From: an uncultured Gammaproteobacteria bacterium
GTDB lineage: Bacteria > Pseudomonadota > Gammaproteobacteria > UBA9214
Direction of reading: 5' to 3'
Length of the DNA stretch: 64,000 nucleotides
Assembly: GCA_963827755.1 (NCBI GenBank)
Contig: CAWHCQ010000004.1
Location: 32,001-96,000, forward strand
Positions 1,525 through 62,412 of the stretch are shown piece after piece. The position numbers and the translations under genes were made by a program. Below the pieces are notes generated by a model, which was not told the DNA's origin, searched no databases, and was given only the letters and a program-made list of their open reading frames with translations. How positions within the stretch are numbered: position 1 is the first letter of the stretch; every line of letters begins with the position of its first letter.

Positions 1525-2952
1525 ATGGATGTTCTGAATACGCAGTTCAATTACGCTGTGATCCTCGGGGGCGGGCCCTCGGGCCTGGCCGCGGGGCATG
1601 TGCTGTCTGAATCCGGGTGCAATGTCCTTGTCATCGAGCGCCAGGCGCGCGTCGGCGGTCTCGCCAAGACCCTCGAGCACCATGGCTTCAGATTCGACCT
1701 GGGCGGTCACCGCTTTATCACCGGCAACAAACAGCTGGAGAGCCTGGTAAGGGAAATTCTCGGGGGTGAACTGTTGACGGTCGAGCGTTCGAGCAAGATC
1801 CTGCTCGATGGCAAGCTCTATGACTACCCCATAACTGTTCGCAATGCCCTTTCCCGGCTCGGTTTGCGCAAGTCGATCAGGATAGGTGCGGACTATTTAC
1901 TGGAACAGATGCGCAAACGCTTTAGAAAGACCCCGATCATCTCGCTGGAAGACTGGGTCGTGCAGCACTTCGGGCGTTCCCTGTTCGAGTTGTTTTTCAA
2001 GGAATACAGCGAGAAGGTCTGGGGTATACCCTGTAACAGAATTGCCAGGGAGTGGGTCGCCGCGAGGATAAAGGGCCTGTCCCTCGGGGTGGCCATCAAG
2101 GCAGCATTCTCGCGCACCGGGTCGCGACGCCCGCGGACACTGGCGAATCAGTTTCTGTATCCGCCGCTTGGTATCGGACAGATCTGCGACGGCCTCAAAG
2201 CGCGGATAGACGAGATCGGTCAGGTAATGACGGATACGCGTGTGATCGGCATCAACCATGCGGATAACCGGATCCAGAGCATCATCGTAAAGGATGCCGG
2301 CGGCGTTCAGGGGTATACGGGCTACGAATTCATCTCCAGCATTCCATTGACGCTGGTCGTCCAGCTGCTTAATCCACAACCGCCCGCAGAGATCCTCCAG
2401 GCGGCGGCCAGCCTTCGATTCAGGGATCTCATCGTGGTGACCGTAATGATCAACCGGGAACATGTCACCGACCAAACCTGGATATACGTACCTGACTCGA
2501 CGGTACCCTTCGGCCGAATCCACGAACCGAAGAACTGGAGCGCCCGAATGGCGCCCGAGGGCAAGACTCACCTTGTGGTCGAGTATTTCTGCTTCAGGGA
2601 AGATGCTATCTGGGCGGAGACAGATACGATGCTTGCACAGCGCACAGTCCGTGAACTCGGCAAGCTCGGGATAATCGAAGTGGAAGAGGTTTACGACAGT
2701 GTAGTAATGAAGATACCAAACGCCTATCCGCTGTTCGAGGTGGACTATATCGAGAAACAGAAATGTATTGTTGATTATCTCGAGCGGTTCACGAACCTTG
2801 AGCTGGTCGGGCGGGGAGGCCAGTTCGAATACTACAATACCGATCACGCCATGGAGTCCGGTATCGCTGCGGCGGAGGCCATTCTTGCGCGAATCGATGG
2901 CACGGTCGCCGTGCGAACACCGGTGCTGGCAAGAGGCCGGGTATGCCCATGA
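1525..2952 (+). CDS. FAD-dependent oxidoreductase (protoporphyrinogen oxidase / UDP-galactopyranose mutase-like family)
   Basis: VILGGGPSGLAAG Rossmann motif, ERQARVGGLA, FDLGGHRF, C-terminal GRGGQFEYYNTDHAM. Confidence 0.85.
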   Translation: MDVLNTQFNYAVILGGGPSGLAAGHVLSESGCNVLVIERQARVGGLAKTLEHHGFRFDLGGHRFITGNKQLESLVREILGGELLTVERSSKILLDGKLYDYPITVRNALSRLGLRKSIRIGADYLLEQMRKRFRKTPIISLEDWVVQHFGRSLFELFFKEYSEKVWGIPCNRIAREWVAARIKGLSLGVAIKAAFSRTGSRRPRTLANQFLYPPLGIGQICDGLKARIDEIGQVMTDTRVIGINHADNRIQSIIVKDAGGVQGYTGYEFISSIPLTLVVQLLNPQPPAEILQAAASLRFRDLIVVTVMINREHVTDQTWIYVPDSTVPFGRIHEPKNWSARMAPEGKTHLVVEYFCFREDAIWAETDTMLAQRTVRELGKLGIIEVEEVYDSVVMKIPNAYPLFEVDYIEKQKCIVDYLERFTNLELVGRGGQFEYYNTDHAMESGIAAAEAILARIDGTVAVRTPVLARGRVCP

Positions 2953-4439
2953 AGTGTGTGCTGATACATCCCGCGTGGTCCCCGGAGGAAATCTTCCCTG
3001 CCGGGACGGTCACGTCGCAGATCAACTACTGGCAGCCACTCGGCACCCTCTACGTGGGCGCCGCGATGCTCGAGGCGGGGCATGAGGTTGAGTTTTTGAA
3101 TGGTGCATTCATGACCCATGAGGCGATCATGGCGCGAGTTGCGGAGATCCGCCCGGAGTTCGCCGGCCTTTACTCGACGACCTTTGGCTTTTCGAAGGCG
3201 GTCCATACGGCGAACGCGCTCAAACAGTTCGACAGGGACATGTTCGTGTGTGTTGGCGGCCCCTATCCCATGGCCATGAAGTATCAGTGTCTCGAGGGGG
3301 AGGGGGCGAACTTCGATGCGGTGGTCACCGGCGAGGCCGAATTGGCGATCGTTGAGCTGCTCGAACGACTGGCGGGGGATATGGGTCTCACAGGTCTGGC
3401 GGGGGTGGATTTCAGGGTGGGCGGCGAGATTATCCGCAACCCGCCCCGCGCGCTGCTCGAAGACCTCGATTCACTGCCATTCCCGGCCCGGCACCTGCTG
3501 GGCGAGAAGGCGCACTACATCCCGCCGCCGGGTCAGTACCGGCGCAAGCCGGTCACGATCCTGATTACGTCGCGGGGCTGCGACAGACGCTGCATTTTCT
3601 GTTTTCAGGTCGACAAAGAGCGCCAGTATGGCAGCCGCGGAGTCCGGTTCCGCAGCGTCGAGAATGTCCTGCAGGAGATCGAGCTGTGCCTCGCCCAGGG
3701 CTATCGGGAGATCAAGTTCATCGACGACACGTTTGCCGCCAACTACGACCGGGCCATGGATATCTGCCGGGAGATAAAGCGACGCAAGCTCGATTTCACC
3801 TGGTTTGCCTCGGCCTGCGTGAACCAGGTCGACCCGCCGCTGCTGCAGGCCATGAAAGACGCCGGCTGCTGGGCGATCCTGTTCGGGGCGGATAGCGGCG
3901 TGCAGAAGACACTCAATTCACTGCGCAAGGCGACCACGCTCGAGATGATCCGGCGCGATGTCGCGTGGGCGAAACAGGCCGGTATCCGTGTGAGTACCCC
4001 GTTTATCTTCGGTGCGCCCGGCGAGACCTTCGAGGACGGACTGAAGACGATCGAATTCGCCGTGGAGCTCGATGCCGATCTGGCCAACTTCCATTCGCTC
4101 ACGCCGTTTCCGGGTACGCCGTTGCACGACAACCTGGAGAAATACGGGAGCGTCTCGGAGAATCTCTCGGATCGTACCTATCAGTCAGCTGCGTTCGTGC
4201 CCTATACGATGACGCGCGATGAAATCCTCAACTTGCGCCAGATTGCGTTCCGGCGTTTTTACACCCGGCCGAAGTTCCTGTTGCGCCGGTTACTGCAGAT
4301 GCGTTCCTGGAATGACCTGCGGGTCAATTTTCAGGGTCTGCGAAGCCTCTACCAGCTTTGGGCCACGCGTAATTTATTTCACGGCTGGAAAGGCAAGGCG
4401 GGAACGCCTGAAATCGCCGGGCGGAGCGCTGAGGAATGA
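2949..4439 (+). CDS. cobalamin-binding (class B) radical SAM protein
   Basis: N-terminal B12 domain (PLGTLY...VGGPYP...VVTGEAE), TSRGCDRRCIFC CxxxCxxC. ATGA overlap with the upstream stop. Confidence 0.9.
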   Translation: MKCVLIHPAWSPEEIFPAGTVTSQINYWQPLGTLYVGAAMLEAGHEVEFLNGAFMTHEAIMARVAEIRPEFAGLYSTTFGFSKAVHTANALKQFDRDMFVCVGGPYPMAMKYQCLEGEGANFDAVVTGEAELAIVELLERLAGDMGLTGLAGVDFRVGGEIIRNPPRALLEDLDSLPFPARHLLGEKAHYIPPPGQYRRKPVTILITSRGCDRRCIFCFQVDKERQYGSRGVRFRSVENVLQEIELCLAQGYREIKFIDDTFAANYDRAMDICREIKRRKLDFTWFASACVNQVDPPLLQAMKDAGCWAILFGADSGVQKTLNSLRKATTLEMIRRDVAWAKQAGIRVSTPFIFGAPGETFEDGLKTIEFAVELDADLANFHSLTPFPGTPLHDNLEKYGSVSENLSDRTYQSAAFVPYTMTRDEILNLRQIAFRRFYTRPKFLLRRLLQMRSWNDLRVNFQGLRSLYQLWATRNLFHGWKGKAGTPEIAGRSAEE

Positions 4440-4490
4440 CGCTGCGGCGACTTGATTGTTCTCATCCATGAAAACAGGAGACCTGATACG

Positions 4491-4781
4491 ATGAACATTC
4501 TATTTGAGATATCATCGGGCGATGCGTCCAGTGTACTGGTGCCGCTGGCCCGGGCCTGCGATCGCAACGGGGTGACATGGAGCTGCTTTTTTACCGGCGA
4601 CGGCGTCAAGACCCTCGCGCGTGACGATGTCCGTGCAACAATCGCGGGGGCAGCGAGCGCGGCGGCCTGTGAAGTTTCCTGGGAACGCTACATGGGAGAC
4701 CAGCCCTGTCCCGTGGAGATAGGCAGCCAGACCAACAACAGCGCCATGGTCGGTGATGTCGACAAAATCGTCAGCCTTTAG
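4491..4781 (+). CDS. DsrE-like sulfur-relay protein
   Basis: CAGGAG RBS. FFTGDGV motif, AACEVSW Cys at the DsrE active-site position, GSQ, C-terminal DKIVSL. Confidence 0.75.
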   Translation: MNILFEISSGDASSVLVPLARACDRNGVTWSCFFTGDGVKTLARDDVRATIAGAASAAACEVSWERYMGDQPCPVEIGSQTNNSAMVGDVDKIVSL

Positions 4782-11596: not shown

Positions 11597-14318
11597 TTAC
11601 TGCACCAGTGTCAGGCCCGGTTTTGCAGAAGACAGCAATTCATCAATCTCGTCGACAGGCAGCGGCCGGCTGAACAAATAACCCTGCATGACATCACAGC
11701 CATGTTCGGTCAGGAAGATGCGCTGTTCATCCGTCTCGACACCCTCGGCAACAATGGTCAGGTTGAGCGTGTGGCCGAGGGCGAGAATCGCCTCGACTAT
11801 GGCTGCATCGTTGTTGTCTGCCGGAATGTCGCGCACAAAGGAACGGTCGATTTTCAGGGTATTGATCGGCAGACGTTTCAGGTAACTCATCGATGAATAG
11901 CCGGTGCCGAAGTCATCGATGGCCAGCTGCACGCCGAGATTGCGCAGTGCGCGCAGGTTACCGATAGTGGTGGCGGCCTGGCTCATGATGCAGCTCTCGG
12001 TGATCTCCAGTTCGAGATAGCGCGGCTCAAGGCCGGTGGCATCCAGGACTTCACCGACTGCCTGTACCAGTCTGTCAGTGATCTGCTGGCCTGACACATT
12101 CACTGCAACGGGAATCCTGATCCCCGTTGCATCCTGCCATGCCCTGTTTTGCTCACAGGCGGTCCGCATCACCCACTCACCCAACGGCTCGATCAGCCCG
12201 GATTCCTCCGCTACCGGTATGAACATGTTCGGCGGTACCAGTCCATGCTGCGGATGATGCCAGCGCAGCAGCGCCTCCAGTCCCACGATCCGGTCAGTCT
12301 CGAGCGACACCTGTGGCTGGTAGTGCACCTCAAATTCATCTCTTTCCAGGGCCTTGCGCAAATCTGTTTCCAGGGCCAGCCGTTCGTCGGCGGCGACGGT
12401 CATGTCTGCCAGGTAGAACTGGAACTTGTTACCGCCGTCTTTCTTCGCATGGAACATGGCAATGTCAGCATGCTTCATGAGGGTGGTGACATCATTGCCG
12501 TCCTGCGGGTACATGCTGATGCCGATACTGGCACCGAGGAATACTTCCCGGCCGGACACCTCGAACGGCCTGGCAAGGGCATCCAGGATCCGCTGCGCGA
12601 CTTCCGGCACGCTGTCCTGTGTATCCATGTCCTCGAGAATAATTGTAAACTCATCGCCGCCGAGGCGTGCAACGGTGTCATCCTCGCGTGCAGCTCAGCA
12701 GCAGGCGTTTGGCAACCTGCTGCAGCAGGTCGTCGCCGGCCGGGTGGCCCAGCGTGTCATTGATTTTCTTGAACCCGTCCAGGTCCATGAACAGCAACGC
12801 CAGCTGGCGCCGGGCACGGCGTTGATGCTGCAGGGCATGTGCGAGGCGGTCGCCGAACAGCAACCGGTTGGGCAGGTCGGTGAGCGCATCATGATGCGCC
12901 AGGTGGTCGAGTTTTTCCTGCGTGAGATGGCGCTCGGTAATATCGAGAATGATCGCTACAAATACCTGCGCGGTGCCCGGCCCGGCGAGTTGCAGGTTGA
13001 CCTCGACCGGGTAATGGGAGCCATCCTTGCGTCTGTGTACCGCCTCAAACCGCAGGCGCCGGGTGGTGCCGTTCAGCAGGGGTTCGATAATCCCGATAAA
13101 TGACTCCCGGGTATGCTCCGGTTTGATATCCACGGGGGTCAATTGCAGCAGTTCCTCCATGGAGTAGCCGAGATTGTCACGCGCCCCCTGGTTGACGTTG
13201 ACAAATTTCAGTGTCTGCGTATCGAACATGTAGATCTCGTTGAGCGAATGCTCGAGGATCTCCCCAAGGCTGTTGGCCTTGTCCTCGTGATGCTGGTCAA
13301 GCAGTCGCCGGGTCTGCCTGCGCTCGTTGAGGCTTGCGGCAAATAACAGGGTGAAAAGCGTTGTGACCGCCATGAACAGCTGCAACAGCAGCAGCGATTC
13401 ATTCATGTCGGTACGCATGAAGGGCCCGCTGCCGCCGATTGTCCCCCAGACTGCACTTGCCGCGACCACGGTCAGGCAGATAGTGGCACCGTGTTTGCCG
13501 AAACGCATGGCGGCCCAGGCGAGCGGGGTTATAGGCAGGAAAGCCAGCGGGACATGATTGATAGCCAGCCCCGAGTTGCGTCCGAATACCAGTTGCGCGA
13601 TCAGCAGTGTGCACATCAGCAGCGCTGCCGCTTCAAGCGCGCGTATTACGGACCAGTTTTTTTCAGGCAGCTGTTTCCACGCCAGCAGTAGCGGCGCAAT
13701 CATAAGAACGCCTCCGCTATCACCCAGCCACCAGGTAAGCCAGACGGAGTTATAGAGTGATTTTGCGATCAGTCCTGCTTCCAGCAGGGTGACGGTGCCG
13801 ATGGTTGCACTGATTAATGTTGCCAGCATCCCGCCACCAGCGATCAGGATCAGCACCCCGCGCATGGTATCCAGCGGGTTCCGGGTCCTGGCCAGGGATT
13901 GCACCAGCAGTGCCCCTGCGATGGCTGCCAGGGTATTGCCTGTTGCAATACCCAGACATGCGCTGACGGGCATGCTGGCCGTGATATTCACAATAAATGC
14001 GCCGGCCGTAATGGCGGGCCAGAGACGGATGCCGAAGATCAGCAGGGCTGCCAGGGCGAGGCCGCTGGGCGGCCACACGGCGGTGACGCTGCTGTGCACC
14101 ATGGCCAGCTGCAGGCCCAGTCTGGCTGACACCACGTAGAGAACGATAATGCCCAGGCCAACCAGAGTCAGCCGGGTCAGTTGCTGTGCGTCCATTCGAG
14201 TATGCAGCGGGTGTGTGGCCATGGCGTCGATTTCACAAAATGAGCGAATTTGAGGGACAACCTCACATTCCTGTTGCCTGAACCATGAAATCGGCCGCAG
14301 GCTGTTGATCTTGAACAT
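11597..14318 (-). CDS. MASE1-PAS-GGDEF-EAL diguanylate cyclase/phosphodiesterase, one frameshift near 12685
   Basis: MASE1 TMs (VWPPSG, WWLGD), PAS, HDALTDLPNR, DLDGFK. RLGGDEF (GGDEF at 12647-12661) is in the frame of the downstream EALLRW/DDFGTGYSS ORF. Start codon uncertain. Confidence 0.88.
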
Positions 14319-26489: not shown

Positions 26490-26711
26490 AACGTGAGTGA
26501 TTGATATATTTACAATTAAAGCAACTAAGACAGGGAATCAACGCCCGGGTTCAACCTGAATGCGGGTGTTTTGCATACCTCCCCCTACAGGGGGCTTGCC
26601 TTACGGGGTGTGTTATCATAACGTCTTCCACGCATTATAAAATGTATTTCATCAGGATCCGTGCGATCGGGTCTTTAAAAGGCTGTAAATTTTAATATTA
26701 GGAGAGACGTA

Positions 26712-30880: not shown

Positions 30881-32190
30881 GGTTCAGTCCGGGTTCGTTC
30901 CTGTGAATGTGGTTCTGGTGCTGGTGGTGCGAGCAGGGGCAGGGTAATACGTACGGTTGTGCCGGCCCCGGTCCGGCTTTCTGCCAGCAGCGTGCCTCCC
31001 AGCCGCTGAATGGTTGCCTGTGCAAGGTACAGGCCAACACCAAGCCCCTCTGTCTTGGTGCTGACCGGTGTTTTTCCAAGCTGACTGTGTACCTCCCTGT
31101 TCAGTCCCGGTCCACGGTCGAATATTGCCAGTCTCAGTGCGGTTGCCGACCAGTCCGCTTCCAGTGTTACGTGATCCGGTGAGGCATCGGCGGCGTTATT
31201 CAGAAGATTGACCAGTGCCTGTGTCAGGGTACGCTCGGCGATGATTTCGCTGGCGGGGCCGGAGCGGTCTATAACTGACTCCAGTGTGGCCGCCTGCCCC
31301 TGGGTTTGCCATTGTGCAATGACCTCATCAAGATAACTGCCGACCGGCATGCGGTGGCCGGCTTCTGCGCGCCCGGCCCCGGCGGAGACGGAAATGACCG
31401 AGAGCGCTTCCTTGCAGCGCCTGATTTGCTCCTCCAGGATGCCAAGTTTTTTGTGCAGCTCGGGATGCGCTTCATCGGTGTATTGTTTTTCGAGTTCCGC
31501 AGTGAGGATTGCCATGGTGCCCAGCGGAGTACCCAGTTCGTGGGCCGCACCGGTTGCCAGTGTGCCCAGTGCGATCAGGCGTTCATTCTGCAGGGCGCTC
31601 TCGCGCGCCTCTGCGAGCTTGCGGTCGCGCTGTCGCAGGCTGTGTGCCATGCCGACAATAATGACGGCTACAATACCGGCGCTCATGACGAACCCCAGCC
31701 ACATGCCGAAGATATGCATCCGGAAGCCAGTCGCGTGGTGGGCGTGTTCGGTCCCGGGTGTGCCGATAAAGAACAGGGCCGAATAACTGGCTACGGTAAT
31801 GACCGCCATCATCCATGTATGGCTGCGCGGCAGAATGGTGGCGGCAATCATCAGTGGCAGCAGGTAAAACCATACAAACGGGTTGGATGCGCCACCCGTG
31901 AAAAAGAACACGCCGGTCAGCCCGGCGACGTCCAGCAACATTTGCACAAAGAGTTCACGGTCGCTAAATCGATGCCCGGTTTTCAGTCTGATCCAGGTGA
32001 AGACATTCACACTGATAATCAGGGCAAGCAGAACCAGCAAGGCACGCAGCGGCAGGGCCAGGTCAAACAAAATACCGGCAACTGCTATACCCAGGGCTAT
32101 TGCGGCAATTTCAATATTGCGCAGCGTGAACAGGCGGTTATAGTTCCGGCGTGCTGTTTCTTCCGCGCTTGTGTCCATACCCGGTTTCAT
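30877..32190 (-). CDS. regB: RegB/PrrB-type sensor histidine kinase
   Basis: TM region with GGASNPF quinone-binding motif, AAHELGTPL, N/G boxes. Confidence 0.88.
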   Translation of the reverse strand: MKPGMDTSAEETARRNYNRLFTLRNIEIAAIALGIAVAGILFDLALPLRALLVLLALIISVNVFTWIRLKTGHRFSDRELFVQMLLDVAGLTGVFFFTGGASNPFVWFYLLPLMIAATILPRSHTWMMAVITVASYSALFFIGTPGTEHAHHATGFRMHIFGMWLGFVMSAGIVAVIIVGMAHSLRQRDRKLAEARESALQNERLIALGTLATGAAHELGTPLGTMAILTAELEKQYTDEAHPELHKKLGILEEQIRRCKEALSVISVSAGAGRAEAGHRMPVGSYLDEVIAQWQTQGQAATLESVIDRSGPASEIIAERTLTQALVNLLNNAADASPDHVTLEADWSATALRLAIFDRGPGLNREVHSQLGKTPVSTKTEGLGVGLYLAQATIQRLGGTLLAESRTGAGTTVRITLPLLAPPAPEPHSQERTRTEP

Positions 32191-54024: not shown

Positions 54025-54992
54025 ATGTCCGAATCCGAGTTCGAAATCATCCGCCGTTATTTCATGCGGCAATCATTAAAACGCGACGATGTGCTTACCG
54101 CTATCGGCGATGATGCAGCCGTGTTGCGGGTGCCGGCCGGACAGGAGCTGGTTGTCTGTATGGATACGCTGGTTGCCGGGGTGCACTTTCCCTGCGAAAC
54201 AGCAGCTGCTGCCATTGGTCATAAATCACTGGCGGTCAATCTCAGTGACCTCGCGGCCATGGGGGCAACCCCCGCCTGGGCCACCTTGTCACTGACGATG
54301 CCCGAAAATGATTCCACCTGGATCGATGAATTCAGCCGCGCATTCCTGGCGCTTGCCGATCGTTACAGCGTGCAGCTGGTGGGCGGTGATACAACGCGCG
54401 GACCGCTCTCGGTGACGGTGCAGGCGCACGGTCTTGTTTCACGAGGCGATGCATTGATGCGCAATGGCGCAGCGCCGGGTGACAGGATTTATGTAACGGG
54501 GACTTTGGGTGATGCAGGACTGGCCTTGCAGTTGCAGGGAGATGCCCCGGCTGATTTGCAGAAGAAACTGGATTACCCGGAACCGCGTATTGAGGCAGGG
54601 CAGCTGCTTGCCGGGCTTGCCAGTGCAGCGATTGATATTTCCGACGGCCTGCTGGCCGACCTGGGTCACTTGCTGGAAGGCGGCTGATGCGGGTGCGTCC
54701 CTGCAGGTCGATAGCCTGCCGCGCTCGAATGAATTTATTTCAAGCCTGCAGCAAGTCGGTGTCACAACAGCCGTCCCGCTATTATGAATTACCCCTGTCA
54801 GCCGGGGATGACTACGAACTGTGTTTTACCGTCCCGGAGCGGCACTGCGCCAGGGTCGAACAGCAATTATCGGCACTGCCTTGCGGCTGTACGCAAATCG
54901 GCATCATCGAGGAACAGGCAGGAATCCGCTGTTATCTGGAGGACGGCACGCGCTACCAGCCTGTTGCCGCGGGATACCGGCACTTTGAATGA
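54025..54992 (+). CDS. thiL: thiamine-monophosphate kinase, frameshifts near 54680 and 54775
   Basis: EFEII.RYF, IGDDAA, AVNLSDLAAMGA, GGDT, DISDGL. GDDYELCFT and GYRHF lie in later frames. Confidence 0.93.
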
Positions 54993-54999
54993 GACCGAG

Positions 55000-55480
55000 A
55001 TGACGCCGAGGATAAATCCGCGGCTGTTGCTGCACCCCGTGGACTGCCTGGCGCTGGGATTTGGCAGCGGGCTGGTGCCGCGTGCCCCGGGGACCGCGGG
55101 GACGCTGGTTGCGATCCCGCTGTACCTGCTGCTGCAGACGCCTTTCGCTGAATCTCTATCTGCCGCTGGTCATCGGGCTGTTCCTGCTCGGAATCCCGAT
55201 TTGCGCCCACACCGCACGGCGTCTCGGTGTGCATGATCATCCCGGGATTGTCTGGGACGAAATTGTCGGTTACCTGGTGACCATGACCCTTGCACCCGCC
55301 GGGTTGGGTCTGGGTTGCCGCGGGATTTGTCCTGTTCAGGCTGTTCGATGTTATCAAACCCTGGCCGATCAGCTGGTGTGACCGGCGGGTACACGGTGGC
55401 TTCGGGATTATGCTGGATGATTTGCTGGCGGGTGTGATGGCGGCAGCAGTATTGCAATTGGTTGTTGTTTTATTTGTAGG
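55000..55480 (+). CDS. pgpA: phosphatidylglycerophosphatase A, at least 2 frameshifts, 3' end approximate
   Basis: GFGSGL...APGTAGT, HDHPGIVWDEIVG, FRLFDVIKPWPI..D....GG.GIMLDD. Confidence 0.9.
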
Positions 55481-55499
55481 GGCGCCTTGCAGGCGCGAT
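55476..55499. repeat. single GTAG-type REP (family C)
   Basis: GTAGG-G-GCGCCT-TGC-AGGCGC-GAT. Confidence 0.55.
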
Positions 55500-55514
55500 T
55501 ATTATTTGATGCGG

Positions 55515-55805
55515 GCTTTCGCTGGTCGCTCCCGGCATCCATGCCTCCCGCGACACTTGTACATCCATGTACATCGCGCACGGCGAGATACTTTTCTTTG
55601 CTCCGCCAAAGAAAAGTATCCAAAAGAAAGGCGGCCCGAAGGCTTGCCCGCTACTTGATCTACAAGCCCGCTTCGCAGGCTTGCCCATGCGCTTCTCGCG
55701 AAAACCGGCGCATGCGCAACTCGCAATCTCGCTGCGCTCGAAAGCTCAGACAGGGCGCATGCTTCATCCGGTTTTCACTGCGATGCTCGGCTGCGCCTAC
55801 GGGAG
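55515..55805. mobile_element. non-coding palindrome-rich MITE-like element, boundaries approximate
   Basis: GATACTTTTCTTTG-CTCCGC-CAAAGAAAAGTATC hairpin at 55587-55620, plus GGCATCCATGCC and GTACATCCATGTAC mini-hairpins. No credible ORF. Confidence 0.55.
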
Positions 55806-56014
55806 TAGTTTAAAACCGTGGAATGTCCCGAATTGCTCGTATTCCGGTCGTTTAGCCTCTGCTTATATAATCAATGACTTAAAGGCGGGAGACGACCCAA
55901 AGACGACGTTTAGCGCTTGGTAATATAGATATTGCGGGCGTATATTGAAGTTTCCAGTTAAATAAATAAACAAGACTGGCAACAACTAATAATAGGTTTG
56001 CTGGAGAAATCACT

Positions 56015-56857
56015 ATGAAGAAGTCGCATTCATTAGCCTCGATAAGCGCCGCTATTATTATGTTCCTGTCAACAGCAACGTCTGCTGCGTTGATTGATCG
56101 CGGTGATGGCTTGATCTATGACAATGTACTGAATATCACCTGGCTGCAGAATTCATTCCTGGCTGCGAGTAATACGTTTGGTTTGCCGACTGGTGTGAGT
56201 CTGGGTACACATCCTTCCGACAGCAGCGGTTTTAATGGAATCATCTATTCCATAGGCACCATGAACTGGCCCGGCGCTCTGCACTGGATCGACGCCATGA
56301 ACGCTGACGGCGGCACGGGTTATAAGGGGTTTAACGACTGGCGTCTGCCGATAATGAGTCCCGTCAATGGCAGCAGTTTCAATACAACGTTGAGCAGCGA
56401 CGCCACGACTGATATGGGTACCGCCCCGACTACCACTGATGGGTCGGACGGTGGCTGGCGCGATGGCAGCAACAACCCGGTCTCAGAGATGGGACACATG
56501 TACTACGTGAACCTGGCCAACCTTGGATTGTGTGATCCAGCCGTACCTTATTGTACCTTCCAGACCGGCTGGGGTCTGAATAACACCAGCTTTGTCGATG
56601 CAGAGACCGGCCTGACGGTGTCGCTTGATATTAACCAGAGCGGTAGCGGCTACTGGTTCGGTACGGAGTTAAATTCCAGTACCGCGTGGGGCTTCGGCTT
56701 AAACGTTGGCAGTCAGGTCCAGGCCAGCGGCGATAAGGACTTCACCTCCGCCTATGTTTGGGCTGTGCGTCCCGGCGATGTGCCGATACCCGCCGCGGTG
56801 TGGCTGTTCGGCTCCGGCCTGCTGGGACTAGTAGGGATAGCTAGGAGGAAGTCATGA
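56015..56857 (+). CDS. VPLPA-CTERM (PEP-CTERM-like) sorted protein with DUF1566/Lcl-like motifs
   Basis: Signal peptide, DWRLP, SEMGHMYY, VWAVR, C-terminal VPIPAAVWLFGSGLLGLVGIARRK. Confidence 0.88.
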   Translation: MKKSHSLASISAAIIMFLSTATSAALIDRGDGLIYDNVLNITWLQNSFLAASNTFGLPTGVSLGTHPSDSSGFNGIIYSIGTMNWPGALHWIDAMNADGGTGYKGFNDWRLPIMSPVNGSSFNTTLSSDATTDMGTAPTTTDGSDGGWRDGSNNPVSEMGHMYYVNLANLGLCDPAVPYCTFQTGWGLNNTSFVDAETGLTVSLDINQSGSGYWFGTELNSSTAWGFGLNVGSQVQASGDKDFTSAYVWAVRPGDVPIPAAVWLFGSGLLGLVGIARRKS

Positions 56858-57513
56858 AGAAATCACGTCTGTTGGGTGCTGTGTGTGCATCCTTACTCCT
56901 CCTGTGCACCTCAGTGACGCAGGCAACAATCGTAATAATTGAACCTGATAATTATCTACCGGGGCAAGCTCTAACTAACGTGATTTCCGGAGTTACCTTG
57001 TCGGTTGCAAATGGGAGTGGAGTGCCTCAGTTAAATGACCAAGTTGAAGCTTTCCAAGGTAACTTTTCATCAACCGGAAGCTTGGTATTTGGGAGGCAGG
57101 TGGTACCTTTCATTCCCGATGATAACTGGTTTCTTACCGATATTTTCGTTCACTCAATCTTACGCGCTGACTTTAACGTGCCGGTAGATGCGGTTTCCAT
57201 TGATGTAATATCAGATACAACAGGGGATGAGGGAGCGCTGCTGGCCTACGATGCATCGGGTACACTGTTGGATACCGCCGTGGTCAGTCTTGGTAACCCC
57301 GGCACGTTTGCGACAGCTACCATTAGTCGCCCAACGGCAGACATTGCCTATATACTCGCTGGCGGCTATCCGGTTGTCTCTAGTCCGCCTTTTAACGTCG
57401 TTGCGCTCGACAATCTTCAATTCAATGTTATCCCCATCCCCCCAGCCCTCTACCTCTTCGGCTCCGGCCTACTTGGTCTAGTCGGTATGGCTAGGCGCAA
57501 AAAAGCGGCTTAA
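56854..57513 (+). CDS. VPLPA-CTERM sorted protein
   Basis: Signal peptide, C-terminal IPIPPALYLFGSGLLGLVGMARRKKAA, ATGA overlap. Confidence 0.88.
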   Translation: MKKSRLLGAVCASLLLLCTSVTQATIVIIEPDNYLPGQALTNVISGVTLSVANGSGVPQLNDQVEAFQGNFSSTGSLVFGRQVVPFIPDDNWFLTDIFVHSILRADFNVPVDAVSIDVISDTTGDEGALLAYDASGTLLDTAVVSLGNPGTFATATISRPTADIAYILAGGYPVVSSPPFNVVALDNLQFNVIPIPPALYLFGSGLLGLVGMARRKKAA

Positions 57514-57535
57514 CACTAAATAAGAATCAACAGGG

Positions 57536-57564
57536 ACGGCGGCTTCGGTCGCCGTATTATATTT
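57536..57564 (+). terminator. probable intrinsic terminator
   Basis: ACGGCGGC-TTCG-GTCGCCGT followed by an AT-rich tract. Confidence 0.65.
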
Positions 57565-57835
57565 GCTAAAGGTCTGAAAGTGGCCGACTCCAGTCTTCGT
57601 CGGGCGTTGCAACAATTGGTGAGGGGCGAGCCAGGAACGGCAGGTTACCGACCGTACCCGGTCGTTTAGCAAATAACTATCTGATAATTTGCTAAAAGAC
57701 AGGAGCCGACCCTTTCCTGAAGTTCGGCGACTTGGATTGAATGTCTTGAAGAATAGTAATCAAGCCTAAAAGTAGTAAGAGTGATTGCTCGATAAGCTTG
57801 AGATTCAGGGAAAATGGCGTTAATTCAGCCTACAC

Positions 57836-58264
57836 TCAACCGCTAATATAGGTTTCAAGATTCTTGATCTTGAAGTCCTTCTCAACGATCAGATATTTGA
57901 CGACGTCACCGATCGACACAATGCCGCAGAGGCTGCCGTTGCAAAGTACCGGGAGATGGCGGATACGCTTTTCGGTTATCAGCTGCATGCAATCGTCCAG
58001 CGAGGTTTCCGGCGTGACGGTGGTCAGATCGGTTGACATGAGTTCCCTGACCTTGACCTTGTCGATTTTCTGCCCCTGAAGAACCACCTTCCGGATAACA
58101 TCGCGTTCGGAAACCATTCCGACAACCGCGCCGCCTTCCACCACCACCACTGTTCCCGCGGAAATATCTTCCATTTTTTCGATCGCATCCCGCACCGATG
58201 TGTCCGGGTCCACGGTCAAAACATCGCGTCCTTTGGAATCCAGCAAATTCAATACAGCACCCAT
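57836..58264 (-). CDS. CBS-domain pair protein
   Basis: GMVSERD, RIRHLPV, GIVSIGDVVK. GGAGG RBS. Confidence 0.93.
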   Translation of the reverse strand: MGAVLNLLDSKGRDVLTVDPDTSVRDAIEKMEDISAGTVVVVEGGAVVGMVSERDVIRKVVLQGQKIDKVKVRELMSTDLTTVTPETSLDDCMQLITEKRIRHLPVLCNGSLCGIVSIGDVVKYLIVEKDFKIKNLETYISG

Positions 58265-58409
58265 TACAACCTCCTTGATAATTTATTGATAAACCCCATA
58301 CTTATATTCAGTATATCTGCAAGAACACAAACCTCAAGCCAATCAGTTAATTTATACATAATCCGAAGTATGACATTTTTGAAAAGATATGTAGTCCGTC
58401 TTTAGGCGA

Positions 58410-58580
58410 ACCTGGGGGCTTCTACCCCAGCTGCCGGGCACGTCGTATGGCAGAAAGTGCCGCCTTGCTGGTAGATGAAGTATTGCCACATGAGCCCATG
58501 CGCCAATGGGTATTCAGCGTGCCGTTTCCTCTCAGGTTCCTGTTTGCCAGCCAACCCAAAATCATGGGCAAGGCGCTGGA
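58410..58580 (+). pseudogene. IS91/ISCR-family transposase remnant
   Basis: GFYPSCRARRMAESAALLVDEVLPHEPMRQWVFSVPFPLRFLFA matches the recalled GFCPSCGARRM...RQWV segment of ISCR/IS91-like transposases. Truncated on both sides. Confidence 0.8.
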
Positions 58581-58913
58581 GCAACAATCCGCTGAAATAA
58601 AAACGCCGGAGCAGAACACAGAGGTCGGGCTAAAACCCGCCGGTTATGCGTAAAAGCATTAAAAGAATACAGTACCCTTTAAGCACGACGTGAACATCCG
58701 GTTTCGCAGGAAGCTGACGTTCGCGAGTAGGGTGGTGTATGACGTGTATCCGAACTCGGACGTTCAGAAAACCAATTCCAGAGTTTCCTCTGGCCGCTTG
58801 GTGATACTAAATGCCATCTGCATGCTGACGTGGCCTGCTCCCTGATTTTGTACTACAGTAGCAACTGATTTTCGGACTGCCGCTATATCCATCTATTGAC
58901 GTTCGCCCAAGTC

Positions 58914-59756
58914 ATGCTCAGGCAAAGCTATCTTCTTATTGCGATTCTATGTCTCGGCGTTTTCGCCGGATACTATCTGTTGCGTGTTGTTTCACCACAA
59001 CCGGGTAGTCCAAATGCCGAAGCACCACAGGGTACGTTGGAGTTCGACCGAGAGTATAAAGACTATACGGATGTTACGCTTACCCGATTGCAGCAGCGAC
59101 TCGAGCAAGCAGAGCAGGAGCGGGTATGGCTGGCCGAACGAATTGCAGCACTGGAGGCGGTGACAGGGAAACCCGAGACGTATCCTGACACCGGAACCGG
59201 GACACCGGCAACTGAGGCAAACGAGGTAATGGAATCCACTGCACCACCACCGACCTTTCGCACCAGCGTCGAAGCCCTGATCGAGACCGGTATCCCGGAG
59301 GAGCAGGCGGCCCGCATCCAAGCGTATCTTGATGAGTATGACCTGAAGCAGTTGTATCTGCAGGACCTCGCCAGCCGCGAGGGCTGGCTCAATACCGCCC
59401 GCTACCGCAAGGAACAGAGCGAGACCCGGAATGCCTACCAGGATTTACGCTCGGAGATCGGGGACGATGCCTACGATCGCATGCTCTATGCCCTTGGACG
59501 GACCAACCGGGTCGTAGTGCGCGACATCATGCAGAACTCGACCGCTGAGCAATACGACCTGCGGGCAAACGACCGGATCATCGAGTATGACGGCCAGCGG
59601 GTGTTCACTGGCCAGGAACTGAACACGCTGGTCACCCAAGGGACTGCCGGTGCGCCAGTGCTATTGCGGGTGCAGCGGGATGAACAGCAACTCGAGTTCT
59701 ACCTCCCACAGGGGCCGATTGGCATCAGGCTGGCCACCAGCCGAGAACAACCCTAG
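58914..59756 (+). CDS. membrane-anchored PDZ-domain protein
   Basis: N-terminal TM, coiled coil, C-terminal STAEQYDLRANDRIIEYDGQ...VQRD...GPIGI. Confidence 0.8.
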   Translation: MLRQSYLLIAILCLGVFAGYYLLRVVSPQPGSPNAEAPQGTLEFDREYKDYTDVTLTRLQQRLEQAEQERVWLAERIAALEAVTGKPETYPDTGTGTPATEANEVMESTAPPPTFRTSVEALIETGIPEEQAARIQAYLDEYDLKQLYLQDLASREGWLNTARYRKEQSETRNAYQDLRSEIGDDAYDRMLYALGRTNRVVVRDIMQNSTAEQYDLRANDRIIEYDGQRVFTGQELNTLVTQGTAGAPVLLRVQRDEQQLEFYLPQGPIGIRLATSREQP

Positions 59757-59793
59757 ATAAGGTTGGAGGGAGTGAAACTACAGCATTAGTAAC

Positions 59794-59822
59794 AAGGCTC
59801 CTTCAGGAGCCGTTTTTTCTTT
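59794..59822 (+). terminator. intrinsic terminator
   Basis: GGCTCC-TTCA-GGAGCC-GTTTTTTCTTT. Confidence 0.8.
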
Positions 59823-60124
59823 GGGATTGAATGTCCGAGTTTAGCACTGCATCTCGGAAGTTCGCATGAATTTGGGGAATGACAGGTTCTGGCCGATCCC
59901 GGTAGTACAGTAATCATCCCCAGAGAGATGACTGGCATCTGCTGAACGACCGATTCTGCCCCGATTCAGGTCGTTCCAGGTAGACGCTTACAACGCCGTA
60001 ATCCCAGTTGTGTTCAGTCCTTTCAGAAGCTGTTGAACCGATCCGAAGACAACTTCGTAAACAACATTGTATGCTGGATACTCTTATATCCAATATAGTG
60101 CTAGATGGTTTGATGGATTAGTTC

Positions 60125-60985
60125 ATGGTACACACAACCGGAAGTCTGCTACAACCAAGTTCCTGGCGCATCGCGGCGGCGCTCTTGCCGGGTCTGCTGG
60201 TGGGGGGGCTCATGTTGGCGAACGGTCCAATCCCGCAACCCCTGAGCTATCACGACTTTGCCGATACCCGAGTTTTGCTTGGTATCCCCCACGCCGGAAA
60301 TGTGTTGACGAATCTGGCTTTTTTCATCGTCGGCGGGTGGGGGTTGTGGTTTCTCGCGCAACCAAATTCTTCAGGACGATCTTTCATCGATGGCCGCGAG
60401 CGCCGACTTTTCCGGTATTTCTTCACGGGTGTGTTTCTTACAGCTTTCGGTTCCGGCTGGTATCACCTGGAACCGGACAATTACAGCTTGGTCTGGGATC
60501 GCCTGCCGATGGCAGTGGCTTTCATGAGCATCTTCGCGGTCATGATCGCTGAACGCGTGAAGTTGAATATTGGCGTCGCCTTGTTAGGGCCACTGGTGGC
60601 AATTGGAGTGGCAAGCGTGCTGTGGTGGATCTGGACAGAGCATGCGGGTCAGGGGGATCTGCGTTGGTATTTGATGGTGCAGTTCTACCCCACCCTTACC
60701 ATTGCGCTGATGCTTCTGTTACTGCCCACGCCATACACAAGAGGCAACGACTATTGGGGACTGTTTTTATTTTACGCGGCGGCCAAGGTCGTGGAAGTAC
60801 TCGACCACGAGATATTCAACTTGTCCCAGGGTTTGGTTAGTGGCCACAATCTAAAACACCTGTTCGCAGCAGCTGGTGCTGCGTGGCTCTTGCGGATGCT
60901 CTGGTTGCGCCAGGCACGCCGTCCCCTGATACACCGGGGAAGCGTCCTTGCTACAGCTGAAGTATTCAGCCCGGAGGAGGAGTGA
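60125..60985 (+). CDS. alkaline (phyto)ceramidase-like / CREST membrane hydrolase
   Basis: YHDFADTR, NVLTNLAF, GSGWYH, WDRLPM, SGHNLKHL. Confidence 0.85.
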   Translation: MVHTTGSLLQPSSWRIAAALLPGLLVGGLMLANGPIPQPLSYHDFADTRVLLGIPHAGNVLTNLAFFIVGGWGLWFLAQPNSSGRSFIDGRERRLFRYFFTGVFLTAFGSGWYHLEPDNYSLVWDRLPMAVAFMSIFAVMIAERVKLNIGVALLGPLVAIGVASVLWWIWTEHAGQGDLRWYLMVQFYPTLTIALMLLLLPTPYTRGNDYWGLFLFYAAAKVVEVLDHEIFNLSQGLVSGHNLKHLFAAAGAAWLLRMLWLRQARRPLIHRGSVLATAEVFSPEEE

Positions 60986-61273
60986 CGCCAAAATTCCAAA
61001 ATTTGGCCCATACTTAAATCCGGTGACCAATGTCACCTTTCTTGCATAGTTGCCGTTGAGGGTTTTTGGCGAGAAGGCGGCAACGGGTCTGTTCCCGCTT
61101 TTTAACAGCGGCTAATATTGGAAATGGCTAAACGGTGACTATCGACCCAATATAGCGGAAGTACAGCAAATTGAATTGTATGTCCGAGATTGCGGCGAAA
61201 GCTGACGTTAGCACCCAAGTTCACATTTCCCTATCAGCAAATTTCGATTGTTCGCGAACAGATTTATTGAACG

Positions 61274-61669
61274 CTAATTATTTCTCGCCCCCTGCTTCAC
61301 CCACAAATGCAGAATCTCAATCTCATGTTCTGTTATGGGCTTGTGTGTATTTTTCAATTTAAGAGACAAATTACCGGCACGACCCTCGACCAGCATATTA
61401 AGGGGGCTCGTTTTACTATTACCCGGTACAATCACAGGCCCATATATCGATCCCTCCATGAGGGCCTCATAACTATCCATTTCTAGTCCCGTCTTTCTAT
61501 AACCCCCACCGTTGGGCGGTGTATGGCAATCTATGCATTTATCCACAAATATAGGGTGCACATCTCGTTGATAGCTAATCTGCGGTGTGGTTGTACAACC
61601 TGAAGAATAAAGAGAGGTTAGGAGTGTAGTTATAAAACTAACGGTGTATGTATAGTTCATTGGTCTCAT
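61274..61669 (-). CDS. c-type cytochrome lipoprotein (planctomycete cytochrome C-like)
   Basis: SSGC lipobox, ISYQRDVHPIF..KCIDCH, IVPG..S.L, WVKQGA. Confidence 0.82.
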   Translation of the reverse strand: MRPMNYTYTVSFITTLLTSLYSSGCTTTPQISYQRDVHPIFVDKCIDCHTPPNGGGYRKTGLEMDSYEALMEGSIYGPVIVPGNSKTSPLNMLVEGRAGNLSLKLKNTHKPITEHEIEILHLWVKQGARNN

Positions 61670-61680
61670 AGGGCATTACG

Positions 61681-62412
61681 TCAATCAGCCAACACAATTT
61701 GGGAAAGATCACTTATGCAATCCTTTCCTTCTTTTAAAAGCTTTTTCAAAAGTCTCGGATCATGCTCCATATCCAATTCTAACGTGATCATCGCATGGCA
61801 CTCGATTCTTTTGAAAGAGGCTAAAGTATCATTTTTCATCCGTTCTTTCATGATGTTAACGCCAATGACAGGAGGAACGAAAAAATTCGGCTTCATACTT
61901 GATTCATGAAGCACCCGGGTACGTGCCCCCTGAGGGTGTATTTCCCAGGTGGAAAAGCCCGATTCAAAGCTGCTGAGTTCCGGAATGGTTTTTATTGTAA
62001 TGAGTTCTTCCCCAGCCTCTACAATATCCCCGACCCAGTCAATTGTAATGTGGAACGGTCCTATCAAGTGCACAGAATGATTCCGCACCCTAATCACTTC
62101 ATCACGATCAGAAGGAAGCATCTCGATTTCGGTAATAGCTGGATTTATTCGATAGCCATGCTTGTAATCAGTTATTACCTCATATACGTAATCCTTAGGC
62201 GCATCGAGTATATATACAACCCGCAGGCGGTACTCACCATTCGCCTCTATTACGGACAGTTCTTCAAGCTCACCAGCAGTGGAAATAGCATTGAATAGTA
62301 GCAAAGCAGACAGGGTGCATATCCAGGTCACTGAGGTGCATAGCATTGAATGCCGCGACTCAGCTTGCCTGAGAAATAATGCCATCAACTGCTGCATTAT
62401 CGTCATCATCAA
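61681..62412 (-). CDS. SRPBCC/START (polyketide cyclase-like) domain protein
   Basis: LDAP...VYEVITDY, G..TW...GARTRV, P.FFVPPVIG. Start uncertain. Confidence 0.7.
   Translation of the reverse strand: MMMTIMQQLMALFLRQAESRHSMLCTSVTWICTLSALLLFNAISTAGELEELSVIEANGEYRLRVVYILDAPKDYVYEVITDYKHGYRINPAITEIEMLPSDRDEVIRVRNHSVHLIGPFHITIDWVGDIVEAGEELITIKTIPELSSFESGFSTWEIHPQGARTRVLHESSMKPNFFVPPVIGVNIMKERMKNDTLASFKRIECHAMITLELDMEHDPRLLKKLLKEGKDCISDLSQIVLAD

Follow-up and report, generated by a model that had tools for sequence, protein, structure and literature searches.

The genes of a flexible island in the 64,000-nt stretch of DNA analyzed here (the window: positions 32,001 to 96,000 of contig CAWHCQ010000004.1, assembly GCA_963827755.1, from an uncultured gammaproteobacterium) are separated by clusters of a short imperfect palindrome, and our comparisons with related genomes lead us to a reading that we hold at about even chances: that the palindromes would be recombination sites, akin in kind to repetitive extragenic palindromes (REPs) and to the neisserial intergenic mosaic element (NIME), which border exchangeable modules in flexible islands and recombine by crossover inside a shared center. 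We infer, further, that the exchange is site-specific rather than repeat-mediated. Below, genomes carry G-numbers and contigs C-numbers: G000 is the source genome (2.85 Mb), in which the window's island occupies C4 87.8-93.2 kb, and the locus labels L009, L012, L013 and L014 stand for G000:C14, G000:C35, G000:C12 and G000:C40:91968-96119, with L019 in G038 and L074 in G186. Most of the compared genomes are metagenome bins, from which mobile replicons may be missing.

The island holds 11 clear and two or three weak copies of the palindrome, distributed over five spacers (A to E) between window positions 55,818 and 61,214. Each of the nine hairpin copies quoted by an earlier note on this DNA, made from the sequence alone, was found in its place; its count of 15 is not borne out, since we find 11 firm and two or three weak copies, and a copy of the quoted style at 57,740 was not recovered. 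We built a covariance model, R1, on 34 copies, of which the window supplied 12 and C14 and C36 together 22, and ran it without filters on the whole window, where it returned 15 rows at E ≤ 0.2, comprising 11 plus-strand sites (two in spacer A, three in B, two in C, three in D and one in E), three reverse-strand echoes and one match outside the island. That last match, at 26,536, is borderline (17.7 bits; E 0.15) and is the only one in the remaining 58.6 kb. Spacer E holds two further copies that score only 11-12 bits with R1. Since the window copies fit R1 by construction, independent support comes from matches outside the training set. A scan of the whole window against Rfam gave nothing at gathering scores, and we found no description of the palindrome family in the literature searched (supplements excluded).

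The unit is about 30-33 nt long and consists of two inverted arms of about 11-12 nt around an asymmetric center of about 7-8 nt, with outer bases GAAYG...CRTTC and a consensus, in alignments of 15 and then of 34 copies, close to TGAAYGnCnGG...TGGCCG/CGACCC...CnGnCGTTyAG. The centers in G000 are of two types, TGGCCGA and CGACCCA, and these are also the commonest among several center variants in G038, a genome of another genus. Units in G038 and in G186, a closed genome of a third lineage, are near-perfect, with 11-12-nt arms, a 7-8-nt center and the same two main types. Among the 34 G000 copies, 66.7% of arm cells pair, compared with 63.7% after column shuffling (23 of 500 shuffles reach 66.7%) and 26-37% in slid controls, and RNAalifold found no consensus fold for these copies; the consensus is therefore palindromic, yet many local copies pair poorly, so that the earlier statement that inner stems mostly still pair holds only in part for G000. 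In G038, where 85 matches were aligned by fitting them to the model with both strands of palindromic sites counted, 87.8% of cells pair compared with 84.6% in shuffles, none of 500 of which reach that value, and 39 cells are changed on both sides where 14 are expected. This covariation, together with varied inner-arm sequences that still pair, favors the view that selection acts on the symmetry itself. The suggestion that the sites are defined by structure is thus weak for G000 and clearer for G038.

Searched with R1, G000 gave 46 matches at E ≤ 10, all on eight contigs, and 34 of them lie in three arrays, at C4 87.8-93.2 kb, C14 1.7-11.5 kb and C36 0.8-5.9 kb; the others, all outside the training set, are on C28 (at a contig end), C35, C12, C21 (at a contig start) and C7. 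The motif is therefore real, rare and strongly clustered in a few islands and is not spread across the core genome, a point on which the interpretation in the earlier note is supported. Among 24 congeners, 19 match R1 at E ≤ 1, with 0 to 35 matches per genome, and five that are 93-100% complete have none. Farther afield, four of 150 other genera in the class, each represented by one genome, match at E ≤ 0.02. The top score in G038 is 35 bits, compared with 30 bits for the best training copy, and this genome has 83 matches at E ≤ 1 with both strands counted (33 in the congener G020 on the same count). In G186, 36 matches at E ≤ 0.5 form about 12 clusters of two to five sites, mostly in a single orientation, although two clusters hold one opposite-strand site each. 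Most G186 sites lie 0-110 nt past the stop codons of small co-oriented open reading frames (ORFs), or overlap those codons by a few bases; 14 of 19 array ORFs belong to no Pfam family, and the others encode a GNAT protein, an SNase, an SRPBCC protein and two DUFs. Near-perfect single sites after co-oriented genes occur in G038 too. Each of these two genomes has an array whose start lies about 110-140 nt past a tRNA-Met(CAT) gene downstream of dnaG-rpoD (L019:4654-4907 in G038, L074:8115-8342 in G186); in G000, C28 carries rpoD at about 8 kb from its site-bearing end. Between rpoD and tRNA-Met, G038 also carries two direct repeats of about 130 nt that begin like tRNA genes.

The modules that the palindromes enclose recur in other genomes beside other genes. 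The CBS-domain module has a 95% identical copy with other neighbors in G013:C326; the PDZ module has an 89% copy in G012:C67, beside a different module, and 77-80% copies in G003, G005, G013 and G016; and the pair of genes for a cytochrome c and an SRPBCC protein has a 95% copy in G012:C30, with a full composite of palindromic units on either side. A DUF748 module from the C14 array is 96% identical over 3.5 kb to a segment of G012:C67 that lies directly beside the PDZ module, and G000 itself holds the PDZ and DUF748 modules on separate contigs (C4 and C14). The same modules with different neighbors indicate that modules have been re-sorted between genomes, and the earlier proposal that the clusters delimit modules agrees with these arrangements.

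The ends of these homologies show where the exchange may have taken place. Our junction set, a small sample, consists of 13 ends of seven matches with 87-96% identity and lengths of 83 nt to 3.5 kb; two of the matches are at the level of the composite (83 and 130 nt, to G019:C157 and G012:C19), and 11 ends were inspected by eye, the two of the G006:C359 match being taken from BLAST coordinates only. Seven of the 13 fall within a site center (57705, 57712, 58753 and 61143 in the window; 4663, 6155 and 9633 on C14), as the earlier note had supposed of breakpoints, and centers make up roughly 1.4% of the two arrays on our estimate that some 24 sites, counted at 8 nt each, occur in 14 kb. At site B2 (Table 1), homology with G013:C326 begins at 57705, and homology with G019:C157 and, in three paralogous alignments within the genome, with C36, C14 and C28 stops at 57712; the longest direct repeat has three copies, each of which finishes on the CCC of the CGACCC core. 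Homology with G012:C67 begins at the 3' arm of site C2, at 58753, and the 95% homology with G012:C30 starts at 61143 in site E3. At this last site, the copies of the 60.1-61.1 kb module (about 99% identity) on contigs from four metagenome sequencing runs of four studies all give way to unlike sequence at 61148-61151. Two of these contigs, from runs X2 and X9, start at 59890/59891, inside the center of site D2, and one X2 contig changes partner at 55900, by site A2, with a side of only 22 letters. Run contigs that appear to skip at 55900, 57712 and 61158-61171 have flanking sides of 21-22 letters, and we read these skips as other copies of the repeat and not as deletions; no sequencing run contains more than 0.28 of the sampled words, and no RNA run was among those listed. 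At CGACCC sites, identity either begins with those six bases or stops directly after them, which would place the crossover within the shared core. The G012 counterpart of C14 9633 agrees through the 5' arm and center but goes over into a 3' arm that belongs to a different type of site, and is therefore an arm hybrid, the one clear hybrid.

Within this genus the units follow one another in a fixed order and make up a composite of about 200-220 nt: H1 (center TGGCCGA), a conserved linker, H2, an AT-rich palindromic linker, H3 (center CGACCC) and H4. The full H1-H2-AT-H3-H4 order is present twice in G012:C30, in spacer B of the window, at C36:1935-2140 and at C14:6017-6180, and the five window spacers are whole (spacer B) or partial composites, homologous in a BLAST search of the genome over 76-133 nt to spacers on C36, C14, C28, C35 and C12. 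Site E4 has 88-97% copies at C14:4653, C12:81554 and C35:2822. The composite had no match in plasmid and phage collections. An exact scan of genome contigs for the H4 pattern returned 12 records, where by our reckoning about four would occur by chance; of the two that look relevant, one bears the title Thiogranum sp. metagenome-assembled genome (MAG). On both C35 and C12, H4 gives way at one and the same base to a stretch of about 110 nt that is identical in the two places (L012 2490-2860 and L013 4550-4700) and reads as the beginning of a short ORF; both copies adjoin genes for secreted proteins with thrombospondin-type repeats.

The arm-center-arm layout, the apparent crossovers in the center, the hybrid arms and the single orientation per array together fit a site-specific recombination site. 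Were the palindromes such sites, modules would be gained, lost and re-sorted by recombination with the crossover inside the shared center, each module would carry the 3' arm of its left site and the 5' arm and center of its right site, and recombinant sites would be arm hybrids. Folded single-stranded DNA, which the earlier note proposed, and a double-stranded recombinase core site fit this anatomy equally well. The enzyme may be encoded outside the binned genomes or may belong to no recognized recombinase family.

Our search for that enzyme covered the customary candidates. For IntI there was nothing above the TIGR02249 cut-off in site-rich G017 or G038, and G186 has no Phage_integrase ORF of IntI size, although the TIGR02249 model was not run on that genome. 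Y1_Tnp, the domain of the REP-associated tyrosine transposases (RAYTs), is absent in G038, G169, G174 and G186, and the four copies in G000 lie away from sites; Y2_Tnp, the IS91 domain, was not found in G000, G017, G020 or G038 and is present in site-free G014. Group II maturase occurs in only four of the 24 congeners and not in G038, and serine recombinases were not found in G000, G006, G012 or G020. Of the candidate enzymes listed, G038 has none except two large serine recombinases, and G020 has only IntI. Another candidate is a tyrosine recombinase of 232 aa that lies within 250 nt of sites in all four arrays with an intact or near-intact copy (in G013, G015, G017 and G023; L043:2204-2899, L046:6942-7637, L048:162-860 and L047 about 2663-3295). 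It is 73-80% identical between genomes, has only a short N-terminal part and sits as a "cassette" among the sites, with broken copies in G014, G015 and G016. We rejected it as the general enzyme: it is in six of 24 congeners and is not in G000, G006, G012, G020 or G038. An all-against-all comparison of array ORFs from ten genomes gave no recurrent enzyme, and neither a tyrosine recombinase nor an HUH enzyme, for which the earlier note had suggested looking, was found to go with the sites. G000 also carries a dif-like site at C34:42909-42935, with one mismatch to a dif motif; judged by this short motif, we take it to be the probable chromosomal dif site.

The lineage also possesses an integron, which allows a direct comparison with attC sites. 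In G000 a pseudo-intI at C40:95643-96103 retains only TIGR02249 positions 15-82 and 249-314, and G020 and G006 encode intact IntI (456 and 455 bits). The G020 integron array has canonical attC sites of 57-97 nt, and from ten of these we built a second covariance model, R2; attC sites in general measure about 57-141 nt, a range that the palindromic units of about 30-33 nt do not reach. Run on G000, R2 finds four sites by the pseudo-intI on C40, two on C3 and two weak ones on C9 and C12, and nothing in the palindrome islands on C4, C14 and C36; R1 in turn finds nothing in the G020 integron array. Because neither model matches the other's sites, the lineage integron and the palindromes are separate things, and the link to attC that had been drawn from the shared ends goes no further than analogy. 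The window contains no intI, as had been stated, and the sites need none. The decayed G000 integron (L014) keeps of its intI only the N- and C-terminal parts, upstream of which stand four canonical attC sites, and the two-site attC cluster at G000:C3:20201-20886 lies about 4 kb from a Y1_Tnp gene (C3:16187-16519).

Mobile elements have left traces at the sites. A group II intron on C14 (L009 about 1745-4538, reverse transcriptase ORF 2943-4341) has its 3' end inside a TGG|CCGA center, 9 nt after another site; this 3' end is common to eight copies in G003, G005, G013 and G045 at 94-98% identity, and G012:C19 has the uninterrupted counterpart of the split C14 site. An intron fragment adjoins a site on C36. 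Integrons have attC-targeting introns, to which the C14 intron can be likened. The IS91 remnant that the earlier note had recognized in the window was upheld: positions 58397-58579 are 90% identical to G013:C350:10219-10403, directly upstream of a Y2_Tnp domain. The CBS module as found in G013 lacks the remnant. In congeners, IS91-family transposase genes are paired with a tyrosine recombinase gene directly upstream (G022:C8:410839-412393, G014:C258:1956-3461, G015:C98:2810-4310 and G013:C212:237-1502). The C14 array is bounded by a gene for a 339-aa integrase and by tRNA-Val(CAC) (L009:11752-12914), a layout that looks like that of the usual tRNA-linked genomic island. This tyrosine recombinase (11752-12771) was considered and rejected as the enzyme of the system, as it adjoins tRNA-Val and looks like an ordinary island integrase; it is unrelated to the in-array recombinase of G017 (28% identity over 43 aa).

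Table 1. Sites, modules and neighboring elements of the island, in window positions
Feature	Positions	Strand	Evidence
Different repeat, about 225-330 bp, left edge of the island	55472..55805		at least 9 other G000 copies
Site A1, palindromic unit	55818..55857	+	R1 26.1 bits, E 0.002
Site A2, CGACCC-center type, center 55893-55898	55877..55915	+	R1 23.5 bits
Module 1, two secreted proteins with a common C-terminal sorting-signal-like tail	56015..57513	+	Pfam
Site B0, TGGCCGA center, unit H1	57565..57603	+	R1 19.4 bits; homologous to C36:1943, C14:6028
Site B1, unit H2	57632..57671	+	R1 26 bits
Site B2, unit H3, center CGACCC 57707-57712, recurrent junction	57691..57729	+	R1 22.2 bits
CBS-domain protein module	57836..58264	-	Pfam CBS 96.5 bits
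Remnant, N-terminal part of IS91-family transposase gene	58397..58653	+	DNA match to G013:C350
Site C1	58689..58726	+	R1 17.8 bits
Site C2, left junction of PDZ module at 58753	58734..58769	+	R1 19.5 bits
PDZ-domain protein module	58896..59756	+	Pfam PDZ_2
Site D1	59826..59867	+	R1 22 bits
Site D2, TGGCCGA-center type	59874..59912	+	R1 30 bits, the genome's best
Site D3	59941..59980	+	R1 28.8 bits
Membrane protein, weak ceramidase-family likeness	60125..60985	+	Pfam 22.8 bits, under cut-off
Site E1, weak	61025..61062	+	R1 12.3 bits, E 2.6
Site E3, unit H3, center CGACCC 61143-61148, recurrent junction	61127..61168	+	R1 only 11.4 bits
Site E4, unit H4	61175..61214	+	R1 25.8 bits
Cytochrome c (61274-61669) and SRPBCC protein (61681-62412) module	61274..62412	-	Pfam

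Among the gene contents of the island, Pfam agrees with the earlier calls of CBS, PDZ, SoxY and SoxZ, and the "ceramidase" call did not hold at the Pfam cut-off. Module 1 consists of genes at 56015-56857 (with an Lcl_C domain by Pfam) and 56854-57513, which share a 68-nt direct repeat at their 3' ends, and homologues of the first gene occur in the arrays of G015, G020 and G022. The repeat at the left edge has other G000 copies that are 74-98% identical (two on C40, C4:98837, C52, two on C17, two on C7, and C35) and further copies in congeners; with a perfect 14-nt inverted repeat at 55587-55620, it looks, by sequence, like an element of the miniature inverted-repeat transposable element (MITE) type. 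Core synteny with 30 congeners at the DNA level (riboflavin-nusB-thiL-pgpA) ends at about 55,480, just before this repeat. The pgpA-like gene to its left (54784-55381) is read in two overlapping frames (ORFs 54784-55236 and 55061-55381), with one or two frameshifts, and looks like either a pseudogene or an assembly error.

Several observations weigh against regarding the palindromes as recombination sites. Pairing in G000 is no better than in column shuffles, and many of its copies have a decayed look; the G038 sites stand in both orientations in tight clusters of about 55 nt, as in REPs and bacterial interspersed mosaic elements (BIMEs); and six of the 13 homology ends, mostly right-hand ends, lie off-site (57630, 58408, 59769, 62481 and both G006:C359 ends). 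The center junctions are partly non-independent, 57705 and 57712 belonging to one site and 61143 and the run contigs to another, and BLAST alignments tend to stop where conservation does, so that the clustering could be overstated. Neither circles nor excised modules turned up, the metagenome-run data being assembled contigs, a form that cannot show circles. None of IntI, RAYT, IS91 transposase, group II maturase, serine recombinase or an array-linked tyrosine recombinase tracks the site counts, the remaining tyrosine recombinases of G017 and G020 are only XerC-like and XerD-like, and the palindromes are unlike the dif-like site on C34. Much of this is what one would expect of ordinary REP/BIME-type palindromes, acting as stabilizers of mRNA 3' ends, as terminator-like elements or as protein-binding sites and piling up in accessory DNA, with center junctions produced by homologous or short-homology recombination of repeats or by breakage at hairpin or cruciform tips and with no dedicated system, an explanation that we consider possible, though clearly short of even chances. 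The size, extragenic position and palindromic consensus of the units, the tight mixed-orientation clusters of G038, the mosaic composites with other motifs, the sites just 3' of co-oriented genes in G186, the off-site ends and the lack of a dedicated enzyme among the candidates searched all suit it, and insertion sequence (IS) elements and introns are known to target REP centers. Against it stand the numbers, which are tens of copies and not hundreds, grouped in few arrays (46 on eight contigs in G000, 36 in about 12 clusters in G186), and the lack of RAYT genes in G038 and G186. The GTAG head typical of RAYT-linked REPs is missing from the 34 aligned copies, as judged by eye. Junctions fall at one position, the 3' edge of the 6-9-nt center, in seven cases and with clean arm swaps, where repeat-mediated exchange should scatter over the 200-nt composite; confinement to arrays and a fixed crossover point are not easily explained by ordinary REP/BIME-type palindromes.

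The established recombination systems account for less. That the palindromes are attC sites of an integron, or of a cluster of attC sites lacking integron-integrases (CALIN), recombined by IntI, we find scarcely credible: the cassette-like layout, the AAC...GTT-like ends, the mostly co-oriented small genes, the pseudo-intI in G000 and the intact IntI in G020 and G006 all point that way, but each model is silent on the other's arrays, the units are about 32 nt long and stand two to five to a spacer where the attC sites of the lineage measure 57-97 nt, crossovers fall at the center and not at the G|TT box, and G038, the site-richest genome, has no TIGR02249 match above cut-off. It is improbable, too, that they are Xer-type sites whose modules, like the plasmid dif modules of Acinetobacter, are moved by host XerC and XerD. 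The arm-center-arm anatomy of about 11/7-8/11 is in its favor, as is the finding that, of the tyrosine recombinases, only the XerC-like and XerD-like ones were found in each of the site-rich genomes examined; plasmid dif (pdif) sites, however, resemble dif and alternate in orientation, whereas the palindromes are unlike the dif-like site of G000 and share one direction within an array. Acinetobacter is known to have gene modules with sites of this kind at their flanks (PMC6449649, PMC13141974). Highly improbable, in our view, is the explanation that the palindromes are relics or targets of another mobile element, either ends of IS91-family rolling-circle transposons or homing sites of group II introns, and that the mosaic results from that element's activity. 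It would account for the IS91-family remnant in the island (58397-58653), for the many sites that end in GTTC, the IS91 target, for the intron in the C14 site center and for the intron fragment by the C36 site. Y2_Tnp, however, is missing from four site-bearing genomes and present in one without sites, maturase genes are found in few congeners and not in G038, and the CBS module of G013 does without the remnant.

Recombination at sites that border exchangeable modules therefore remains our preferred account, and it admits an extension that we regard as unlikely, although worth stating: a gene-cassette system distinct from integrons, in which small modules with sites of about 32 nt would enter and leave many chromosomal places, including the tRNA-Met locus downstream of rpoD, with strand exchange in the 7-8-nt center, the two center types serving as compatibility classes and the catalyst being a recombinase or nuclease of no recognized family or an enzyme of the host drawn to folded DNA, in several marine gammaproteobacterial genera. 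If the palindromes are true recombination sites, integrons are not the sole bacterial way to file and re-sort single-gene modules, and uncultured marine sulfur-cycle bacteria would have another and simpler type of site for this task, half as long as attC, in use at many loci and independent of IntI. They would also offer a concrete and testable case for the proposal made for the Neisseria repeat arrays, in which palindromes promote exchange of neighboring genes, with the crossover readable from the sequence. The palindromes matter for genome assembly as well, since these repeats break assemblies (four of the eight site loci in G000 abut contig ends) and mark where the accessory genes of these genomes should be sought.

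Set beside the systems already described, REP/BIME palindromes with RAYTs, attC arrays and the dif modules of Acinetobacter each share features with the palindromes and each fails a defining test here. REPs, BIMEs and REP doublets forming hairpins (REPINs) with their RAYTs are likewise extragenic imperfect palindromes of 30-40 nt that form clusters and mosaics, are lineage-specific and serve as targets of mobile elements (see PMC3337134 and PMC3116915); the palindromes differ in being confined to few islands with tens of copies and in forming no inverted doublet (REPIN) in this genus, and no RAYT accompanies them, G038 and G186 having none and the four Y1_Tnp genes of G000 not being near sites. 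With attC and CALIN arrays they have in common a position at the 3' ends of small, mostly co-oriented and mostly ORFan cassettes, modules re-sorted between genomes, symmetry conserved above sequence and use as a group II intron target, but they are half as long, lack R and L boxes, stand several to a junction in this genus, cross over at the center and not at a terminal box and form many small arrays (about 12 in G186) with no attI/IntI platform. The pdif modules of Acinetobacter are bounded like palindrome modules by arm-center-arm recombinase sites, of about 28 nt, and are shuffled between replicons, whereas the palindromes are chromosomal and not plasmid-borne, are unlike dif and keep one orientation per array.

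The nearest described kind is the NIME, a likeness of kind without sequence homology. As described in PMC1797815, NIMEs are arrays of the 20-bp dRS3 inverted repeats, which have 6-bp ends and an 8-bp center, with short RS segments between them; the arrays adjoin variable genes and differ between strains, were proposed to be recombinase binding sites that promote exchange of neighboring genes, and include dRS3 copies into which filamentous prophages integrate. The palindromes differ from these in having arms of 11-12 nt instead of 6 nt and two conserved types of center, in keeping within this genus a fixed H1-H4 order, one orientation and a crossover that can be placed in the center, and in standing one site per small gene in G186, where NIMEs form arrays that separate large genes. 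For the palindromes, neither a phage nor a transposase was found as partner. What they share with NIMEs and with minimal mobile elements are short inverted repeats with conserved ends and a variable center of about 8 nt, gathered into arrays with short variable segments, beside variable genes and with differences between strains.

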